Below are positions 50,795 to 62,864 of a DNA stretch of 64,000 bases, piece by piece. Source of the stretch: Thermoplasmata archaeon (GTDB taxonomy: Archaea > Thermoplasmatota > E2 > JACPAO01 > JAHFTW01); contig JAXDQS010000003.1 in the NCBI GenBank assembly GCA_034667725.1, positions 576,001 to 640,000 of the forward strand, in the 5' to 3' direction. Below the pieces are notes generated by a model. That model saw nothing but the letters and a program-made list of their open reading frames with translations, made no database searches and was not told where the DNA came from. A program made the translations under genes and the position numbers. Every line of letters starts with the position of its first letter. Within the stretch, counting starts at the first letter, position 1.

Positions 50795-50867
50795 GCTCCG
50801 TTAGTCTAGCGGCCAAGGATTTAGGCCTTTCAAGCCTGCGGCACGGGTTCGAATCCCGTACGGAGCA
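50795..50867 (+). tRNA. tRNA-Glu(TTC)
   Basis: Cloverleaf: GCTCCGT/ACGGAGC acceptor, loop CTTTCAA, TTCGAAT. Confidence 0.95.
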
Positions 50868-50874
50868 CTTCCAT

Positions 50875-52958: not shown

Positions 52959-53032
52959 GGGACCCTAGCTCAGCCTGGTAGAGCAGCGGGCTCATAACCC
53001 GTCGGTCTCCGGTTCAAATCCGGCGGGTCCCA
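52959..53032 (+). tRNA. tRNA with CAT anticodon (probably Ile2)
   Basis: GGGACCC/GGGTCCC acceptor, loop CTCATAA, TTCAAAT; G1-C72 argues against initiator. Confidence 0.9.
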
Positions 53033-55189: not shown

Positions 55190-56224
55190 TCAGCCTTGCC
55201 GCTGCACGACCACCGTGAGCGTGTAGTCCTCGACGGTGACGCCGTCCTGGACGGGTCCCGTGATGGCGGTGGTGAACTCCCATTGGCTTTGTTGGGCGTA
55301 GGGGCCGTCGGCGTTGTTGGCGACCTCGATGTAGTAGGTGCGGGTGTTGCCTTCGGTGGCGTCGGGCTCGACGACCTGGAAGCTGCGGCCTTCGGCGCCG
55401 TGGTACGCCAGCGCGATGCCGGTGACGCCGTTGGTGACGGTGAGGGTGGCGATGACGACCTCGGCCTCGGGGGGCACGATGGTGCCGTTGGCGGGGACGT
55501 GGACGCGGCTGCAGGACAGGCCGTCGCAGCCGCCGTCGCCGGGGTCCTGGAGGTAGGCCATGCTGTGCGTCTCGTCCAGGAGGGCGACCTCGTTGGCGCC
55601 GTTCCAGCGGTCGGGGTGGCCGGGGTACAGCGGAATCTCCAGGCCGCGCACCGCCTCGACCTTGGCGTGGACGATGGCCTTGAAGCGGAGGCTGCCGAGG
55701 GTCGGGTCGCTGGAGGCGTGCAGCTCGACGACCCAGGCGGACAGCAGCTGGTGGGGGAGGTCGTTGTCGTTGTTGCTGGTCGGCACGGCGACGGTCTGGC
55801 CGGGCTCGATGGGGCCGACGAGGCGGGCGGCGCTGTCGGCGGCGGACTTCACCCACAGCGTGGGCGCGGCGTAGAAGTCGGTGTCCTCGGGCGTCCAGGC
55901 GAACGTGACCTCGACGGCGGCGGTGCCTTGCGGGACGACGTGGCCGGAGTCGGGGCGCCAGGCTTGGATCAAGGTGTCCTCGCCGCCGCCGAGGCCGGGC
56001 TGGGGGTCGGCGCCGTCGGCGTCCACGACCACCAGGCGGTCCCCGCCGCCCCAGTAGTCGTGCAGGTGCGGCTTGCTGGCGTTGTCGCCGGTGGAGTTGC
56101 CGTAGTCGTCCGGCCGGGTCACGACGATGGGGCCGTCGGTGCTGGACGAGGAGGAGCTGGGGCCGGCGGCGCATCCGGCCAGCAGGACGGCCAGGCAGAA
56201 GACGGCGCAAGGCGCAAGGCGCAT
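55190..56224 (-). CDS. Lipoprotein of unknown function
   Basis: Lipobox LLAGC, Ser-rich linker, acidic beta-rich body. Confidence 0.78.
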   Translation of the reverse strand: MRLAPCAVFCLAVLLAGCAAGPSSSSSSTDGPIVVTRPDDYGNSTGDNASKPHLHDYWGGGDRLVVVDADGADPQPGLGGGEDTLIQAWRPDSGHVVPQGTAAVEVTFAWTPEDTDFYAAPTLWVKSAADSAARLVGPIEPGQTVAVPTSNNDNDLPHQLLSAWVVELHASSDPTLGSLRFKAIVHAKVEAVRGLEIPLYPGHPDRWNGANEVALLDETHSMAYLQDPGDGGCDGLSCSRVHVPANGTIVPPEAEVVIATLTVTNGVTGIALAYHGAEGRSFQVVEPDATEGNTRTYYIEVANNADGPYAQQSQWEFTTAITGPVQDGVTVEDYTLTVVVQRQG

Positions 56225-56277: not shown

Positions 56278-56326
56278 TTTTGGCGGACCTAAACCTTAAG
56301 TCAAAGCGGCTTTAGGGGCGCCGAAA
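56278..56326. promoter_or_regulatory. Two DtxR/MntR-type operator palindromes flanking a CTTAAG TATA-like element
   Basis: TTTTGG-CGGA-CCTAAA (56278-56293) and TTTAGG-GGCG-CCGAAA (56311-56326). Confidence 0.7.
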
Positions 56327-56328
56327 CC

Positions 56329-58638
56329 ATGGCGTCCGTCGACCCTGCCGCAGCACTCATCGGCCTGCGCGAAGGCCTCGAGGCCCTCCTGGTCCTGGGC
56401 ATCCTCCTGGGCCTGGTGCGCCGCTTCGGCCACCCCGAGAAGCAGGCCCTCCTGTGGATGGGCGCGGGCGCCGGCGTGGTCGCAAGCATCGTCGTCGGCC
56501 TCCTGGTGGCCCGCTTCGCCATGGGCTGGTTCGAGGACGCCGGCGGCGCGGCCCTGTTCGAGGTCGTCGTCGCGCTCACCGCGGTGGGCATCCTGACCTA
56601 CATGATCGTCTGGATGCAGCAGCACACCACCGAGCTCTTGGGGAAGGCCAAGCGGGCCGTGCAGGACGCCGCCACCGGGGGCCGCTGGATGGTGCTCGCC
56701 GCCCTCACCTTCGTCACCGTGTTCCGCGAAGGCCTGGAGACCGTGCTGTTCTACGCCGCCCGCAGCAGCGCCGTCTCCTGGGGCGACCTCCTCCTGTCCG
56801 GGGCCGTCGGCTTCGGCGCCAGCGCCCTCATCGCGGCCTTGGTGTTCGGCTTCACCGTCAAGGTGGACCTGCGCAAGTTCTTCGGCGTCACCGGCGCGTT
56901 CCTGATCCTCATCGCGGCCGGCCTGCTGATCCACGTCGTGCACGCCGCCGCCGACCTCGGCTGGATTCCCCACGGCGCCGCCCTCTGGGACACCTCCGGC
57001 GCCCTGCCCGACCACGACCACTGGCTCGGCGGCCCCTTGCACGCCCTCATTGGCTACGAGGACCAGCCCACCGCCCTCGGCCTGCTGCTGTACCTCGGCT
57101 ACATCGTCGGCGTCGGCGGCTGGTACCTCTCGCGCATCGTTGCCAAGGAGCGCCGCGCCGCCGCCCGCGCCACCTCGGCCGCGGTCTTCGTTGCCCTGCT
57201 GGCCGCGTTCGCCTTCACGGGCGCCCTGCCCACGGGTGCTGGCGACCACGGGCACGGCCACGACGACGACCGTTCGCGCGACGCTGACGAGGCCGTCGCC
57301 AGCCAGCTTGCCCAGGCCGCCGGCGCGGCCCTCGCCCGCATCGAGGCGGAAGGGCTGCGGGTCGGCGTGCTGGTGCGGGCGCACGGCGAGCCGGTCCACT
57401 ACAACGCCACCACCTACGCGTCGTTCAAGGCGTTCGTGGACGGCGTCTGGCCTTACACCGGCCTGCCGCCCGAGATGCTGCTGGTCGACCAAGGCACCAT
57501 CCTGCTCGACGACGCGCACCCCTTCGCGACGACGCCCCAAGCGGACGCCAGCTTCGTGGACGCCTGGCTCCGGTCCTACACGCTTCCCGCCATCCCCGTC
57601 ACGGACCCCGCCGGCGCCGCCGACGTCGACGAGGAGCTTGCGGGCGGCCAGTTCTACCTCGCCCCCGGCGCCGGCCCCGGCCTCGGCGAAGGCGACGTGT
57701 ACGAAGTCCTCGGCCTCGGCACCTACCGCACCTGGCTCAAGATGGAGAACGCGAGCCCGATGCACGGCGCCGTCGTCACCGCCTGGGACTCGGTCGAGCG
57801 GCAGGCGCAGGCGGTGTGGGGCGACCGCGTCGTCGTCGCCTTCGCGCACCACGTCGACCCCAAGATGGACCCCACCAAGACCATCGAAGCCGCCGCCCGG
57901 ACGCTGGCGGACGCCGGCGTGGACCTCGTCATCGACGCCTACATGTCGAGCGTCCACAGCGACGCCATGGACACCTGCATGATGCGGCCGCACACCGAGC
58001 ACGCGCTGCGCGCCGCCGGCTACACGGGCCCCATCGTCGCCGCCGGCATGGCCGGCACCACGCTCGCCTGGGCGCAGGCCACCGCCGACCGCGTCGTCCA
58101 ACTCGTCGCCGAGGCTCCGGCCGGCGCCAAGGTCAGCGTGTACCTCGCCCAGCACGGCGGCGACCCCGCCAGCACGAACCCCTGCGGCGAGGGCGCGGAC
58201 CAGTACCACGCCAACGCCGCCGCCGAGTTCGCGCTCGCCCAGGCCGCCATCGCGGCCGAGCTGGGCGGCAACGTGACGGTGCGCCAGGTCTACGGCCAGG
58301 GCGCCAGCGCGGCCGGCGGCCCGCTGTCGCCGGACGAGGCCTTGGCGCTCGACCGCGCGGCCGGCGTCGGCCACGTCGTCGTGCTGCCCTACGAGTTCTG
58401 GGGCAACGCCATGGACAACCTGGTGCCGCTGCGCGAGTCGTTCGGCTACACCGCCGACGACCTGCCCTACTACGGGCCGGGCCACGAGACCCGCCTGACG
58501 CGCGGCGGCGTCGACGTCCGCATCGCGTCCGCCGAGCACGGCACCGACGCCAAGGCGGGCGCGCTGCTGCTGCGCATCGCCGAGGCCATCGCGGGCGAGG
58601 CGGCGGCCGGGGCGCCGGCCGACCACGCCCACGACTGA
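56329..58638 (+). CDS. FTR1/EfeU iron permease fused to a class II chelatase (ferrochelatase-like) domain
   Basis: Two REGLE motifs, MIVWM, LWDTS, LIGY; extra TM, His/Asp linker; AHGEP, AQHG, VLPYEFWGNAMDNL. Confidence 0.8.
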   Translation: MASVDPAAALIGLREGLEALLVLGILLGLVRRFGHPEKQALLWMGAGAGVVASIVVGLLVARFAMGWFEDAGGAALFEVVVALTAVGILTYMIVWMQQHTTELLGKAKRAVQDAATGGRWMVLAALTFVTVFREGLETVLFYAARSSAVSWGDLLLSGAVGFGASALIAALVFGFTVKVDLRKFFGVTGAFLILIAAGLLIHVVHAAADLGWIPHGAALWDTSGALPDHDHWLGGPLHALIGYEDQPTALGLLLYLGYIVGVGGWYLSRIVAKERRAAARATSAAVFVALLAAFAFTGALPTGAGDHGHGHDDDRSRDADEAVASQLAQAAGAALARIEAEGLRVGVLVRAHGEPVHYNATTYASFKAFVDGVWPYTGLPPEMLLVDQGTILLDDAHPFATTPQADASFVDAWLRSYTLPAIPVTDPAGAADVDEELAGGQFYLAPGAGPGLGEGDVYEVLGLGTYRTWLKMENASPMHGAVVTAWDSVERQAQAVWGDRVVVAFAHHVDPKMDPTKTIEAAARTLADAGVDLVIDAYMSSVHSDAMDTCMMRPHTEHALRAAGYTGPIVAAGMAGTTLAWAQATADRVVQLVAEAPAGAKVSVYLAQHGGDPASTNPCGEGADQYHANAAAEFALAQAAIAAELGGNVTVRQVYGQGASAAGGPLSPDEALALDRAAGVGHVVVLPYEFWGNAMDNLVPLRESFGYTADDLPYYGPGHETRLTRGGVDVRIASAEHGTDAKAGALLLRIAEAIAGEAAAGAPADHAHD

Positions 58639-58649
58639 AACCGCGGCGG

Positions 58650-60407
58650 CTAGACCGCCGTGACCGCGACCCGCCGCGGCAGCGTGAAGTAGAACGTGGA
58701 GCCCCTGCCGTTGCCCTCGGAATGCACGCCGATGGTGCCGCCGTGCGCCTCGATGATGCCCTTGCAGATGTAGAGGCCGAGGCCGGTGCCGGCCTTGATG
58801 TCGCGCGGCTCGCCGACCTGGCTGAACGGCTGGAACAGCTTGCCGGCCTCGTCGCGGGCCAGGCCGCGGCCGGTGTCGCGCACCAGGAAGCGCACCGTCT
58901 CGGGGTCGCTCTCGACCACGACGTTGACCTTGCCGCCGGGGGGCGTGAACTTGAGGGCGTTGGAGACCAGGTTGAACAGCACCTGGGTCAGGCGGTCGGG
59001 GTCGGCCTCGACCCGCAGGTCGCCGGCCGGCACGTCGGTGCGCAGCTCGAGGCCGGCGGCCTGGGCCGAGTGCCCGAAGGCGTCGGCGCAGTCGGCCACC
59101 AGCAGGCGGATGTCCACGGCGGCGGGCGTGAGACGCAGGTGGGCGCTCTGCAGGCGGGCGACGTCGAGGACGTTCTGCACCAGGCCGGAGAGGCGCTCGA
59201 GGTTGCGGTCGAGGATCTGCACGGAGCGGCGCTGCGGCTCCGTGAGGGGGCCGAGCTTGGCGTCCCGCAGGGCGCGCAGCTGGAGCCGGAGCGGGGTGAG
59301 CGGGGTGTTGAGCTCGTGGCCGGCGGTGTTCAGGAGGTCGGTCTTGAACTGGTTGACCTCCTCGAGCCGCTCGATCTCCATGAGGCGCTGGCTGGCCACG
59401 ACGCGGTCCTGCTCGGCGCGGCGGCGCATCGTGACGTCGCGGAAGCTCCAGACGCGGCCGACGATGCGGTCGCCCATGCGTTGCGGCTTGGAGGTGCGCT
59501 CGAACACGCGGCCGTCAAGGAACTCGACCTCGTCCTCCGACTCGGCGGCGGGGTGGGCGTAGAGGTCGCGGACGCGGGCCAGGAAGGCGTCCGGGTCCTG
59601 GATCTGGCCGATGACGCTTGCGAGGGCGCGCTCGTCGACGCCGGAGCGCAGCACGTCGTCGGGGATGCCCCACATGGCGGCGAAGTGCTTGTTGTGGCTC
59701 GTGATGCGGCCGTCCAGGTCCACCACCAGGATGCCGTCGGCGGTGGCGTCGAGGGTGGCGCCGAGCTGCGAGGCGGTCTCCTGCAAGGTGTGGTTGGCCT
59801 CCTCGGTCTTGAGGCGGGCCTCCTCGCTGAAGCGCCAGGCGGCGATGGCGGCAGCGCTCGCGCACAGGATGAAGAAGGCGTGGACGCCCGCCCAGGCCCA
59901 GGGGTTGGCCAAGGCGCCGGGGTGGTTGTAGACCGCGTGCGGGTCGAGGGCGCCGACGACGCCGTGGTGGAACGCGACGAAGGCGATGGCCATCAGGAAC
60001 GGCCGCCAGTCCTGGTAGAGCGCCATGGTGGCGACGACGACGAAGAAGTGGAAGTGCATCTCGATCAGGCCGCCCGACAGATGCACCAGGATGGCGGACG
60101 AGGACACCAGGCCCAGGCCCGTCAGAGTCGCCCGGGCGGAGCGGTGCCAGCCCTCATGGCCGATGCGGGCCGGCCAGAGGCGAGGCAAGGCGGCGGCCAG
60201 CGCCACGGTGGCCACGATGGAGGCCTCCAGCAGGCTGTGCAGCAGGCCATGGCCCGTGAACATCCCGTAGCCGACGATGATCGGCACGTGGAACGCCAGC
60301 AGGCCCAGCATGACGTTATGGCGGTTCTGCCACTCCATGGCCGGCAAGGCCACGCCCCGCGGCAGCCAGACCGGCAGCCATCGATGCGCAGGATACGCGT
60401 GGCCCAC
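58650..60407 (-). CDS. Membrane sensor histidine kinase with PAS domain
   Basis: About six TM with GGLIEMHFHFF; PAS; HELNTPL, NLVSNALKF, DTGRG, GTGLGL. Confidence 0.92.
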   Translation of the reverse strand: MGHAYPAHRWLPVWLPRGVALPAMEWQNRHNVMLGLLAFHVPIIVGYGMFTGHGLLHSLLEASIVATVALAAALPRLWPARIGHEGWHRSARATLTGLGLVSSSAILVHLSGGLIEMHFHFFVVVATMALYQDWRPFLMAIAFVAFHHGVVGALDPHAVYNHPGALANPWAWAGVHAFFILCASAAAIAAWRFSEEARLKTEEANHTLQETASQLGATLDATADGILVVDLDGRITSHNKHFAAMWGIPDDVLRSGVDERALASVIGQIQDPDAFLARVRDLYAHPAAESEDEVEFLDGRVFERTSKPQRMGDRIVGRVWSFRDVTMRRRAEQDRVVASQRLMEIERLEEVNQFKTDLLNTAGHELNTPLTPLRLQLRALRDAKLGPLTEPQRRSVQILDRNLERLSGLVQNVLDVARLQSAHLRLTPAAVDIRLLVADCADAFGHSAQAAGLELRTDVPAGDLRVEADPDRLTQVLFNLVSNALKFTPPGGKVNVVVESDPETVRFLVRDTGRGLARDEAGKLFQPFSQVGEPRDIKAGTGLGLYICKGIIEAHGGTIGVHSEGNGRGSTFYFTLPRRVAVTAV

Positions 60408-60532
60408 GCCGTCCTTTGGGAGTTGACCCCTATTTGGGCTGGCGGGGCCAAGGTTTAAGACCCCAGGCCGCGGACCCGCGACTTCCACGGGCCTCCGATG
60501 CCTCTATGGGGGACATCCGCTGGCGCCCGCCC

Positions 60533-62503
60533 ATGGGCTTCGAGGTCCTCGACCGCGCCGCCGCCGGCAGGCTCGGACGCTTCACGACGCCCCACGGCAA
60601 GGTCACCACCCCCGCCCTCATGCCGGTGGTGAACCCGAACCTGCAACTCTGGCCCACGGCAGAGCTGCGCAGCCGCTTCGGCGCCGAGATGGTCATCACC
60701 AACGCCTACGTCATCCAGAAGCACCAAGCCCTGCGGGACCAAGCCCTCGCCCAAGGCGTCCACAAGATGCTCGGCTGGGACGGCGCCGTCATGACCGACT
60801 CGGGCACCTTCCAGATGTACATGTACGGCGACCTGCAGCTCGACAACGCCACGGTCGTGGGCTTCGAGCGCGACATCCAGGTCGACGTCGGCACCTGCGT
60901 GGACCTGTTCGTCACCCCCGACATGGGCCGCCCCGAGGCCGAGGCCGCCGTCCGCACCACCATCGAGCGCACCAAGGAGGCCGCCGCGATGCGGGGCGGC
61001 ATGATGGTCAACGCCACCGTCCAAGGCGGCGTCCACTACGACCTGCGGAAGTCCTGCGCCGAGGCCTACCGAAGCCTGGACGTGGACTACCACACCATCG
61101 GCGGCGTCGTGCCCGTCATGGAGCGCCAGATGTACCCCGAGCTGGCCGAGATGATCCTCTGGAGCCAGGCCGGCCTCCGCAAGGACCGCCCCGTCCACCT
61201 GTTCGGCGCCGGGCATCCCCTCGTCTTCCCGCTCGCCGTCGCCCTCGGCTGCGACCTGTTCGACTCCTCCAGCTACGCCAAGTACGCCAAGGACGGCCGC
61301 ATGATGTTCGAGTGGGGCACCGCCCACCTGGCCGAGATGAACGAACTGCCCTGCAGCTGCCCGCCCTGCGCGAAGCACGGCGCCGACGGCCTCAAGGCGC
61401 TGCCCCCGAAGGAGCGCGAGCAGGCGCTCGCCGAGCACAACCTCCACGCCTGCTTCTCCGACCTGCGCCGCATCCGCGTGGCCATCCGCGAAGGAAGCCT
61501 ATGGGAACTGGTCGAGCAGCGCGCCGCCTGCCACCCGCTCTTGGCCGCGGCCACCCGCAAGCTCGGCGACCCGACCTACCAGCATTGGCTGGAGATGCGC
61601 GAGCCCGTCTCCGCCACCCGCGCATTGCGCTACACCGGCTCGCTCACGCACCAGCGGCCGATCTTCCGCCGCATCCGCGAACGCCTCCAGAGCCGCGTCG
61701 TGCCCCAAGGCGAGCCCATCACGGTCGAGGCCGACGGGCCCTACGCCAACGCCGGCGAGTCGCGCATCGAGCTGGGGATGCACAAGGAGCCGGACAACAA
61801 GCCCTACGGCGGCCGCCTGGGCAGCCTGGACCCCGAGATGGACCACGCCGTCATCTCGCCGCTCGGCCCCGTCCCCCTCGGCCTGGACGAGGCCTACCCG
61901 TTCGCCCAGTCGGTGCTGCCCCGCCTCGACCTCCTGGACCGCGGCCACATGGGCTGGGTCGGCGAGACCAAGGACCTGCTCCTGCAAGCCCACGGCTTCG
62001 TGCCCGCCATCCCCGGCCCCGGCGGCAAGCACGGCAAGGTGGACCTGGACCGCCTCCGGGTCGTGCGCACCGCCGACTGGCAGTTCGGCGCGGGCGCAGG
62101 CGCCGCCCTCACGGCCGGCGAGCTGCGCATCGAGAAGTCCGCCAACACCGAGAAAATCCGCACCGTCCACCTCGACGGCAAGCACGTCCTCAGCCTGCGC
62201 GCCCACGACGGCTTCTGGACCTTGAAGCTGGCCGGCGCCGAAATCCTGCTGCGGACGTTGCCCGCCCCCGCCAACCGCGTCGTCGTGAAGGCCGACTCCG
62301 TGCCGTTCAACCGCGCCGGCAAGTCGGTGTTCGCCCAGTTCGTGGCCGCCATGGACGAAGGGCTGCGCCCCGGCGACGAGTGCCTGGTGGTGACGGAGGC
62401 CGACGAGCTGGTGGCCGTCGGGCAGGCCCTGCTGGTGGCGGAGGAGGCGGCGGACTTCCAGAACGGCATGGCCGTGAAGGTGCGGGAAGGGAAGGCGGCG
62501 TGA
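60533..62503 (+). CDS. tgtA: Archaeal tRNA-guanine(15) transglycosylase
   Basis: TPALMPVVNP, MTDSGTFQ, VQGG, HLFGAGHP, DLFDS, CSCPPC..HN, C-terminal PUA domain. Confidence 0.95.
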   Translation: MGFEVLDRAAAGRLGRFTTPHGKVTTPALMPVVNPNLQLWPTAELRSRFGAEMVITNAYVIQKHQALRDQALAQGVHKMLGWDGAVMTDSGTFQMYMYGDLQLDNATVVGFERDIQVDVGTCVDLFVTPDMGRPEAEAAVRTTIERTKEAAAMRGGMMVNATVQGGVHYDLRKSCAEAYRSLDVDYHTIGGVVPVMERQMYPELAEMILWSQAGLRKDRPVHLFGAGHPLVFPLAVALGCDLFDSSSYAKYAKDGRMMFEWGTAHLAEMNELPCSCPPCAKHGADGLKALPPKEREQALAEHNLHACFSDLRRIRVAIREGSLWELVEQRAACHPLLAAATRKLGDPTYQHWLEMREPVSATRALRYTGSLTHQRPIFRRIRERLQSRVVPQGEPITVEADGPYANAGESRIELGMHKEPDNKPYGGRLGSLDPEMDHAVISPLGPVPLGLDEAYPFAQSVLPRLDLLDRGHMGWVGETKDLLLQAHGFVPAIPGPGGKHGKVDLDRLRVVRTADWQFGAGAGAALTAGELRIEKSANTEKIRTVHLDGKHVLSLRAHDGFWTLKLAGAEILLRTLPAPANRVVVKADSVPFNRAGKSVFAQFVAAMDEGLRPGDECLVVTEADELVAVGQALLVAEEAADFQNGMAVKVREGKAA

Positions 62504-62784: not shown

Positions 62785-62793
62785 GGCTGGAAG

Positions 62794-62864
62794 TGCGCGA
62801 TACGGGATTTGAACCCATGCTGCTGCCTTGGCAAGGCAGCGTCCTACCACTAGACTAATCGCGC
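62794..62864 (-). tRNA. tRNA-Gly(GCC)
   Basis: Reverse complement folds: GCGCGAT/ATCGCGC acceptor, loop TTGCCAA, TTCAAAT. Confidence 0.95.

Follow-up and report, generated by a model that had tools for sequence, protein, structure and literature searches.

A putative exported ferrochelatase-like domain fused to an archaeal FTR1 iron permease: a possible route of haem-iron uptake

The OFeT systems with FTR1-type permeases have been listed as yeast Ftr1-Fet3, EfeUOB, FtrABCD, FetMP and P19-cFtr1 (PMC9174327). Among chelatases, IhtB is encoded in an iron-transport operon and has long been proposed to act as a reverse ferrochelatase (PMC12094164), and HmuS, a class I chelatase that needs NADH and reduced haem, is a demonstrated de-chelatase (PMC12583661). 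Here we analysed a window of 64,000 nucleotides from a Thermoplasmata archaeon (G000:C3:576001-640000; G000 is the host genome, 2.3 Mb and 90% complete, and labels with G, L, P and C stand for genomes, loci, proteins and contigs). A single gene of this window encodes an FTR1 permease followed, in the same chain, by a ferrochelatase-fold domain predicted to lie outside the cell. Tentatively, and at a chance that we put somewhat below even, the exported HemH-type family of this domain would be a class II haem de-chelatase, here fused to a permease so that one polypeptide strips and imports haem iron. Descriptions of such a fusion, or of an exported HemH-like family, were not found in a literature search whose scope excluded many subscription journals.

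The fusion gene occupies positions 56329-58638 (plus strand) and runs from ATG to TGA with no interruption, in agreement with the 769-residue open reading frame claimed in an earlier note on this DNA. The order of elements given there (REGLE motifs, a basic stretch, an extra transmembrane helix, a His/Asp linker and three chelatase-like motifs) is all present in the sequence. For each 100-codon block, the junction included, the GC content of third codon positions (GC3) was 0.92-1.00. Residues 340-769, used as the query, retrieved 64 proteins (422-1346 aa), and 62 of them (query included) carry FTR1 in the same chain; nearly all of these FTR1-bearing matches are 748-803 aa long and are 41-79% identical over the domain. 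We observed about 60 independent full-length fusions across the NCBI, JGI, ENA and Logan assemblies. The sources were uncultured archaea of soil and sediment, the named homologues came from Thermoplasmatota, and all 11 archaeal GTDB loci (L015-L025) were fused. The architecture shared by some 60 Thermoplasmatota proteins shows the fusion to be genuine, as the earlier note had assumed, and homologues are not always split into two genes.

As judged by its sequence, the membrane part is an intact FTR1 permease. PF03239 covers residues 8-262 (E 5.9e-33; 114.8 bits, curated cut-off 25.3), and this match and the hydropathy profile place the permease domain, with transmembrane helices TM1-TM7, at 56350-57129 (+). 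The two REGLE motifs of the RExxE type lie in TM1 and TM4 (residues 14-18 and 133-137; 56368-56382 and 56725-56739, +), with R14, E15, G16, E18, R133, E134, G135 and E137 invariant in an alignment of 57 rows (A4). With respect to the EfeU equivalog NF041756, the fusion scored 167, below the cut-off of 255. No Pfam match above cut-off was found for the ~500 remaining residues.

Hydropathy averaged over 60 homologues gave eight helices, with no further hydrophobic segment in the chelatase-like domain. The mean number of Lys+Arg per loop in the same homologues alternates (0.0, 3.9, 0.9, 4.4, 0.8, 2.0, 0.7 and 4.5) and falls to 0.3 (0.27) after TM8. The basic, predicted cytoplasmic loop (residues 268-281) and the extra, signal-anchor-like helix TM8 (residues 282-300) take up 57130-57228 (+) and would turn the C-terminus outward. 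In yeast, Ftr1 has seven helices with the C-terminus inside (PMC2064116); the predicted TM1-TM7, with the end of TM7 inside, agrees with that topology, whereas here TM8 brings the chain back out. At the N-terminus, most full-length stand-alone relatives of the domain have a signal peptide or a lipobox, and in some a membrane anchor forms the C-terminus. Because of the charge bias and these signal peptides, the chelatase-like domain is predicted to sit not in the cytoplasm but outside the cell, where the positive-inside rule had also placed it in the earlier note; TM8 may be an ancestral signal sequence. The helix is followed by a His/Asp-rich linker (residues 301-343; 57229-57357, +), recognised by its composition among the fused homologues: 98% of them have at least two His here, with means of 3.5 His and 6.8 Asp+Glu.

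The rest of the chain is formed by the predicted exported class II chelatase domain of HemH/CpfC fold (57358-58599, +) and a variable His-rich C-terminal tail (58621-58635, +) of low pLDDT; at least two His occur among the last 14 residues in 55% of homologues. An AF2 model built on 57 homologues had a pLDDT of 90.6 and a pTM of 0.90. Its top Foldseek matches were the human, yeast, Bacillus and Listeria ferrochelatases (best E 5.7e-9). With VIA-align, the Z scores were 26.3 for yeast ferrochelatase (1l8x, root-mean-square deviation 3.5 over 324 residues), 24.3 for CpfC, 19.9 for SirB, 18.3 for periplasmic CbiK and 18.0 for FetB, compared to less than 9 for unrelated folds, and the top 11 rows were all class II chelatases. 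At the sequence level the similarity is faint: single-sequence and fusion-only profile searches of the PDB sequences gave no match, and only the profile of the wider family (A2) reached ferrochelatases, finding CpfC at E 1.9e-8 (hhalign 97%). The model, Foldseek, VIA-align and the profile thus agree on the C-terminal chelatase fold that the earlier note had proposed.

The alignment equates H609 with H183 of the B. subtilis enzyme (human H263), D696 with E264 (human E343) and S476-P477 with the conserved Ser-Pro, while a His stands at the position of Tyr13 of ferrochelatase. Both H609 and D696 are kept in 63 of the 64 homologues, and H609 is also invariant in the 40-row alignment of the wide family. 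The pi-helix His (B. subtilis H262, human H341) is replaced, with Ala or Gly at position 694. Three more residues, H352, C550 and C619, show essentially no variation among the fusions; of the two His, only H609 persists in the Thermoplasmata and deeper stand-alone members. The key residues are encoded at 57382 (H352), 57976 (C550), 58153 (H609), 58183 (C619) and 58414 (D696), all on the plus strand. Lobe 1 also carries an acidic insertion of ~80 residues.

By sequence and model, then, the domain is a divergent HemH relative with the key His. Every H263 variant of human ferrochelatase is inactive, and its E343D variant is impaired at a catalytic stage that follows chelation (PMC9133952). The change of Glu to Asp at 696, seen beside this human defect, argues against ordinary haem synthesis, and the domain probably has no haem-synthase turnover. 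We rejected filing the domain as HemH: the Glu is an Asp, the pi-helix His is lost, and the family models are not reached (PF00762 did not match the query and only weakly matched 11 of 57 members, best E 2.3e-7; TIGR00109 had no match above cut-off, best E 0.019). The earlier note had likened the domain to the CbiK/IhtB type, and here its reading has to be corrected, as the domain is nearer to HemH/CpfC (Z 26 and 24 versus 18; profile E 1.9e-8 to CpfC). A feature of CbiK/IhtB-type proteins is another metal-binding His, located in the C-terminal lobe. The query has no His in residues 689-700, and none of the 57 members matched the CbiK Pfam model; with the weaker Z scores, membership of that type was rejected.

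The gene is preceded by two predicted operators of DtxR/TroR type. Box 1 (56278-56293) has one mismatch to the palindrome, and box 2 (56311-56326), 33 bp from box 1, ends 2 bp before the ATG. By a position weight matrix trained on genomes other than the host's, box 2 is the best site in the genome (21.5 bits) and box 1 the second best (20.2 bits). In the whole window the two boxes alone came within one mismatch, where 0.01 matches were expected, and only four sites with at most one core mismatch were found genome-wide, two of them being these boxes. An AT-rich, TATA-like element between them (56294-56301, +) is a putative promoter, and homologous loci have AT-rich stretches that separate or adjoin their boxes. 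Boxes precede ~14 of the 16 fusion genes that head their own unit. They also occur before the operon leaders of three operons that contain a fusion (L034, L041, L042), before most plain FTR1 loci and before actinobacterial stand-alone genes. In L043 the fusion is immediately preceded by a DtxR gene, and the host has a single DtxR gene (on C4). The DtxR-type boxes of the earlier note are thus borne out, both by their rank in the genome and by their conservation before homologues.

The TroR motif of Haloferax volcanii occurs as tandem sites ~30 bp apart around the promoter and represses iron-uptake genes (PMC10783522). The palindrome is the same here and the tandem spacing is similar; the TroR targets are siderophore and ABC systems, whereas here the target is the FTR1-chelatase fusion. 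We infer that the boxes belong to a DtxR/TroR-type regulon, with iron rather than manganese as the sensed metal suggested by the targets (FTR1, and the ferritin and feo neighbours of relatives), as the motif alone names no metal. The third-best box of the genome (20.1 bits) precedes a gene for a secreted 436-aa protein with a C-terminal anchor (L079; G000:C1:148272-149579), which has no NCBIfam match and whose homologue lies directly upstream of the fusion in G124; this gene is probably in the same regulon.

The relatives of the domain outside the fusions also tend to be found near iron genes. For example, in L008 a stand-alone member sits between feoB and feoA, in L029 one follows FTR1 and precedes ferritin, and in L027 one likewise precedes ferritin. 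The surroundings in L031 include an ABC transporter, ferritin and DtxR, and in L085 a member with two perfect boxes upstream stands immediately ahead of an exported multicopper oxidase. In L028, L030 and L031 the members are divergent from cupredoxin-like lipoproteins. The common thread of these neighbourhoods is free-iron import, not haem import or synthesis. The loci L027-L033 and L085 (Actinomycetota, metagenome) hold secreted stand-alone members with IdeR-type boxes near ferritin, FTR1, cupredoxin lipoproteins and a multicopper oxidase, and delineate an unnamed, putatively iron-regulated family. Two stand-alone members (P0076, P0086) have His-rich tails and membrane helices.

The haem background was assessed in 38 genomes of the host's order (65-94% complete). 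COX1 was present in 36 of 38, hemB in three, HemH in two and FecCD above cut-off in two; CbiX above cut-off and FeoB were not found in any. In the host genome hemB, hemE, ChdC, AhbD, CbiX and HemH were not found, while COX1 is present. Tetrapyrrole synthesis appears to be beyond the host, which nevertheless has COX1, and the same holds for most of its order; apparently, the order consists of aerobic haem auxotrophs with no recognised haem importer. Three carriers of the fusion (G156, G270, G278) have a canonical HemH alongside it, which argues that the fusion is no stand-in for the biosynthetic HemH, and replacement of that enzyme was rejected.

We consider it very likely that the fusion has a role in iron uptake at the outer face, since the iron-repressor-type boxes and the iron neighbourhoods of relatives agree with the role in iron acquisition claimed earlier. 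The following mechanism could be envisaged. When iron is scarce, a DtxR-family repressor would leave the twin boxes and the gene would be expressed. TM8 would hold the ferrochelatase-fold domain on the outer face, where the domain would bind scavenged haem in its cleft; His609 and Asp696 would protonate the ring and release Fe(II), i.e., a ferrochelatase run in reverse. The His/Asp linker would keep the released ion near the permease, and an exported multicopper oxidase encoded elsewhere may oxidise it for transport by FTR1. The domain would thus be an add-on that widens the iron source, with the oxidase not replaced. Net de-chelation of haem feeding the permease is the leading single mechanism and has, in our estimate, just short of an even chance.

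Haem de-chelation is favoured by the retention of the fold and of the catalytic His (H609 being invariant even in the wide family), and HmuS, a chelatase scaffold that de-chelates haem and was proposed to feed FeoB (PMC12583661), is a precedent. Several observations weigh against it. HmuS needs NADH and reduced haem; no reductant is evident here, no reductase gene accompanies the fusion locus, and the hosts are aerobes (COX1 in 36 of 38), in which any free haem would be present in the ferric state. Beside the fusion genes we recognised no gene for haem binding or import. The lobe-1 insertion and the two invariant Cys could close the cleft. Some stand-alone relatives have no boxes or iron neighbours (L009-L011, L026, L086), and two (P0075, P0079) have no signal peptide as called. 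Finally, purified FetB/IhtB, which among exported class II chelatases has been studied best, inserted Mn and Co, not Fe, and had no reverse activity with haemin (PMC13065792). The analogy to IhtB is thus weaker than the earlier note assumed: IhtB is an exported chelatase in an iron operon, while its chemistry gives no support to a reverse reaction.

The best of the alternatives is that the chelatase fold has become a non-catalytic capture module, binding free Fe ions as the EfeO, P19 and FetP partners of bacterial FTR1s do, or binding haem opened by something else; we regard this as rather unlikely. It would explain the conserved His in both lobes (H352, H609), the many invariant acids and the His-rich linker, and the change of Glu to Asp together with the lost pi-helix His (Ala or Gly at 694) suggests impaired turnover. 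Association with several unrelated ion importers also fits generic ion delivery. On the other hand, archaeal and bacterial members alike retain the full 420-residue ferrochelatase architecture, Ser-Pro and catalytic His included, which exceeds the needs of ion binding, and it is H352, not H609, that is missing in the Thermoplasmata and deeper stand-alone members.

Less probable still, in our view, is a forward chelatase at the cell surface that would load scavenged porphyrin with Fe or a different metal (FetB does so with Mn), either as haem supply for an auxotroph or for porphyrin detoxification. The forward direction is the known bias of ferrochelatases, FetB was shown to be a forward Mn/Co chelatase outside the cytoplasm (PMC13065792), and the order is poor in haem synthesis (none of the six genes named above found in the host, hemB in 3/38, COX1 in 36/38). 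However, 31 of the 38 genomes have no such domain though nearly all need haem, and G156, G270 and G278 have a canonical HemH. Control by an iron repressor would turn on an iron-consuming step in starvation, and externally made haem is no known substrate of FTR1.

A separate question, compatible with any chemistry, is whether the protein is a polyprotein in which TM8 serves as an internal signal peptide and is cleaved, so that the domain is released and the fusion couples expression and export only. We think this improbable. TM8 has a basic n-region and a hydrophobic core, a loose AxA-like pattern follows it in 50 of 60 homologues, and the tree has two fissions to stand-alone exported forms. 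Still, that pattern is permissive and uncontrolled in Ala-rich proteins of high GC, and the His/Asp linker that joins TM8 to the domain keeps its composition, as expected for a tether. An assembly or gene-calling artefact joining two genes, which has only the unusual architecture in its favour, is almost certainly wrong given the ~60 full-length fusions from several databases, the uniform GC3 across the junction and the 62 of 64 domain matches with FTR1 in the same chain, by which sequence error was ruled out.

With respect to origin, the domain tree united all fused forms in a single clade (100/100) that also encloses four stand-alone archaeal proteins; its sister group consists of secreted actinobacterial proteins, and canonical HemH branches elsewhere. 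The domain tree requires 3 changes, read as one gain and two losses, and the FTR1 tree 2 changes (p-AU 0.19), so that the latter neither shows nor rejects a single origin. The trees suggest one fusion with later fissions as the simplest reading. Plain FTR1s of two congeners (L068 in G134, L069 in G133) nest among the fused permeases on long branches, possibly through secondary loss of the chelatase domain. Within the host's order the domain was found in 7 of 38 genomes, fused in five and stand-alone in two.

As many as 10 of 12 congeners have a plain FTR1 of ~290 aa with no chelatase domain, often beside a DtxR gene, and because of this use of a plain permease we take the domain to be accessory. 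The fusion is the only FTR1 found in the host, whose DtxR locus (L047; G000:C4:64300-65500) has no FTR1; there a HAD-like gene directly follows the DtxR gene, whereas a plain FTR1 lies between the two in congener G129 (L063). It seems that the host has lost the plain permease or had it replaced.

As the earlier note stated, no oxidase gene adjoins the fusion. Its neighbours are a divergent lipoprotein gene and a convergent histidine kinase gene. Searches of the host genome found no EfeO (M75), DyP, FeoB or FecCD. The genome does encode exported multicopper oxidases, including one on contig C12, unlinked to the fusion, and one of them has an orthologue, 46% identical, adjoining the fusion in G146. 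The notion of a single-chain system is therefore kept as far as the conserved fusion goes, but independence from an oxidase does not follow. The plain FTR1s of the congeners likewise have no oxidase within 1.5 kb, for which reason the domain was rejected as a substitute for the oxidase.

The divergent neighbour (55190-56224, minus strand) encodes a predicted lipoprotein of 344 aa with a lipobox, of unassigned family (no Pfam or NCBIfam match). It shares the box-bearing intergenic region with the fusion gene, and a functional tie is an unproven candidate; among the fetched loci one homologue was seen (L042), ~5 kb from a fusion gene. A different lipoprotein, with an Ig-like stalk, a beta-sandwich (CarboxypepD_reg) and a conserved Cys pair, is co-transcribed with many fusions and two fission products (L007, L018, L020, L022, L024, L034, L039, L041-L043, L088). 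Its predicted fold had no informative structural match, and in the host its gene is unlinked (L080; C3:198185-199096) and has a weak box (11.2 bits).

The convergent gene (58650-60488, minus strand) encodes a PAS histidine kinase with a hydrophobic N-terminal region, with no link seen to the fusion. Further on is an ordinary archaeal-type tRNA-guanine transglycosylase (TGT, TGT_C2, PUA; 60416-62503, +), which, with the named Thermoplasmatota homologues of the fusion, marks the host as an archaeon. The window also has genes for tRNA-Glu (50795-50868), tRNA-Met (52959-53032, ~2 kb from the divergent lipoprotein gene) and tRNA-Gly (62793-62864).

If de-chelation is true, this would be the first archaeal haem-iron uptake route of its kind found in the literature searched, and it would show for the first time an exported ferrochelatase fold working in reverse physiologically. 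That class II chelatases serve as de-chelatases in vivo is a long-standing, unsettled idea (IhtB); the sole proven case, HmuS, has a different fold. The family offers a compact soluble test protein with a natural Glu-to-Asp change, the human equivalent of which blocks a post-chelation step, and the permease gives a built-in genetic readout for the function of the domain. The findings also connect an unnamed exported ferrochelatase-like family, present in Actinomycetota and further bacteria, with iron uptake, and are relevant to haem and iron handling in a widespread archaeal order seemingly unable to make haem.

Compared to the FTR1/EfeU systems, the fusion has in common the seven-helix permease, two RExxE motifs, probable iron repression and a predicted extracytoplasmic partner. 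Those systems work with separate proteins (multicopper oxidases, DyP peroxidases, cupredoxin/M75 proteins or P19), whereas here the partner is a ferrochelatase-fold domain fused via an eighth helix. With HemH/CpfC (PF00762), the best structural and profile match, the domain shares the two-lobed fold, the His equivalent to H183 and the Ser-Pro. It differs in its predicted location outside the cell, the Asp in place of Glu, the lost pi-helix His, the ~80-residue insertion and the two invariant Cys; it is 10-12% identical, forms a separate clade and is not found in hem operons. Like P. gingivalis IhtB/FetB and the periplasmic CbiK of D. vulgaris, it would be an exported class II chelatase, but those proteins are of CbiK type, ~260 aa long, tied to TonB and ABC systems and a weaker match (Z 18). 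HmuS of Bacteroidota (PMC12583661) is likewise a membrane-bound chelatase relative of a haem-auxotroph host, whose iron was proposed to pass to a free-iron importer, and is the best model of how the fusion might work. This is a functional analogy only: HmuS is a CobN-like, six-domain protein of unrelated fold, NADH-dependent, anaerobic and apart from the transporter, while the domain described here is a 420-aa class II fold. Both parts of the fusion are known folds; the fused ferrochelatase fold is a new kind of FTR1 partner.

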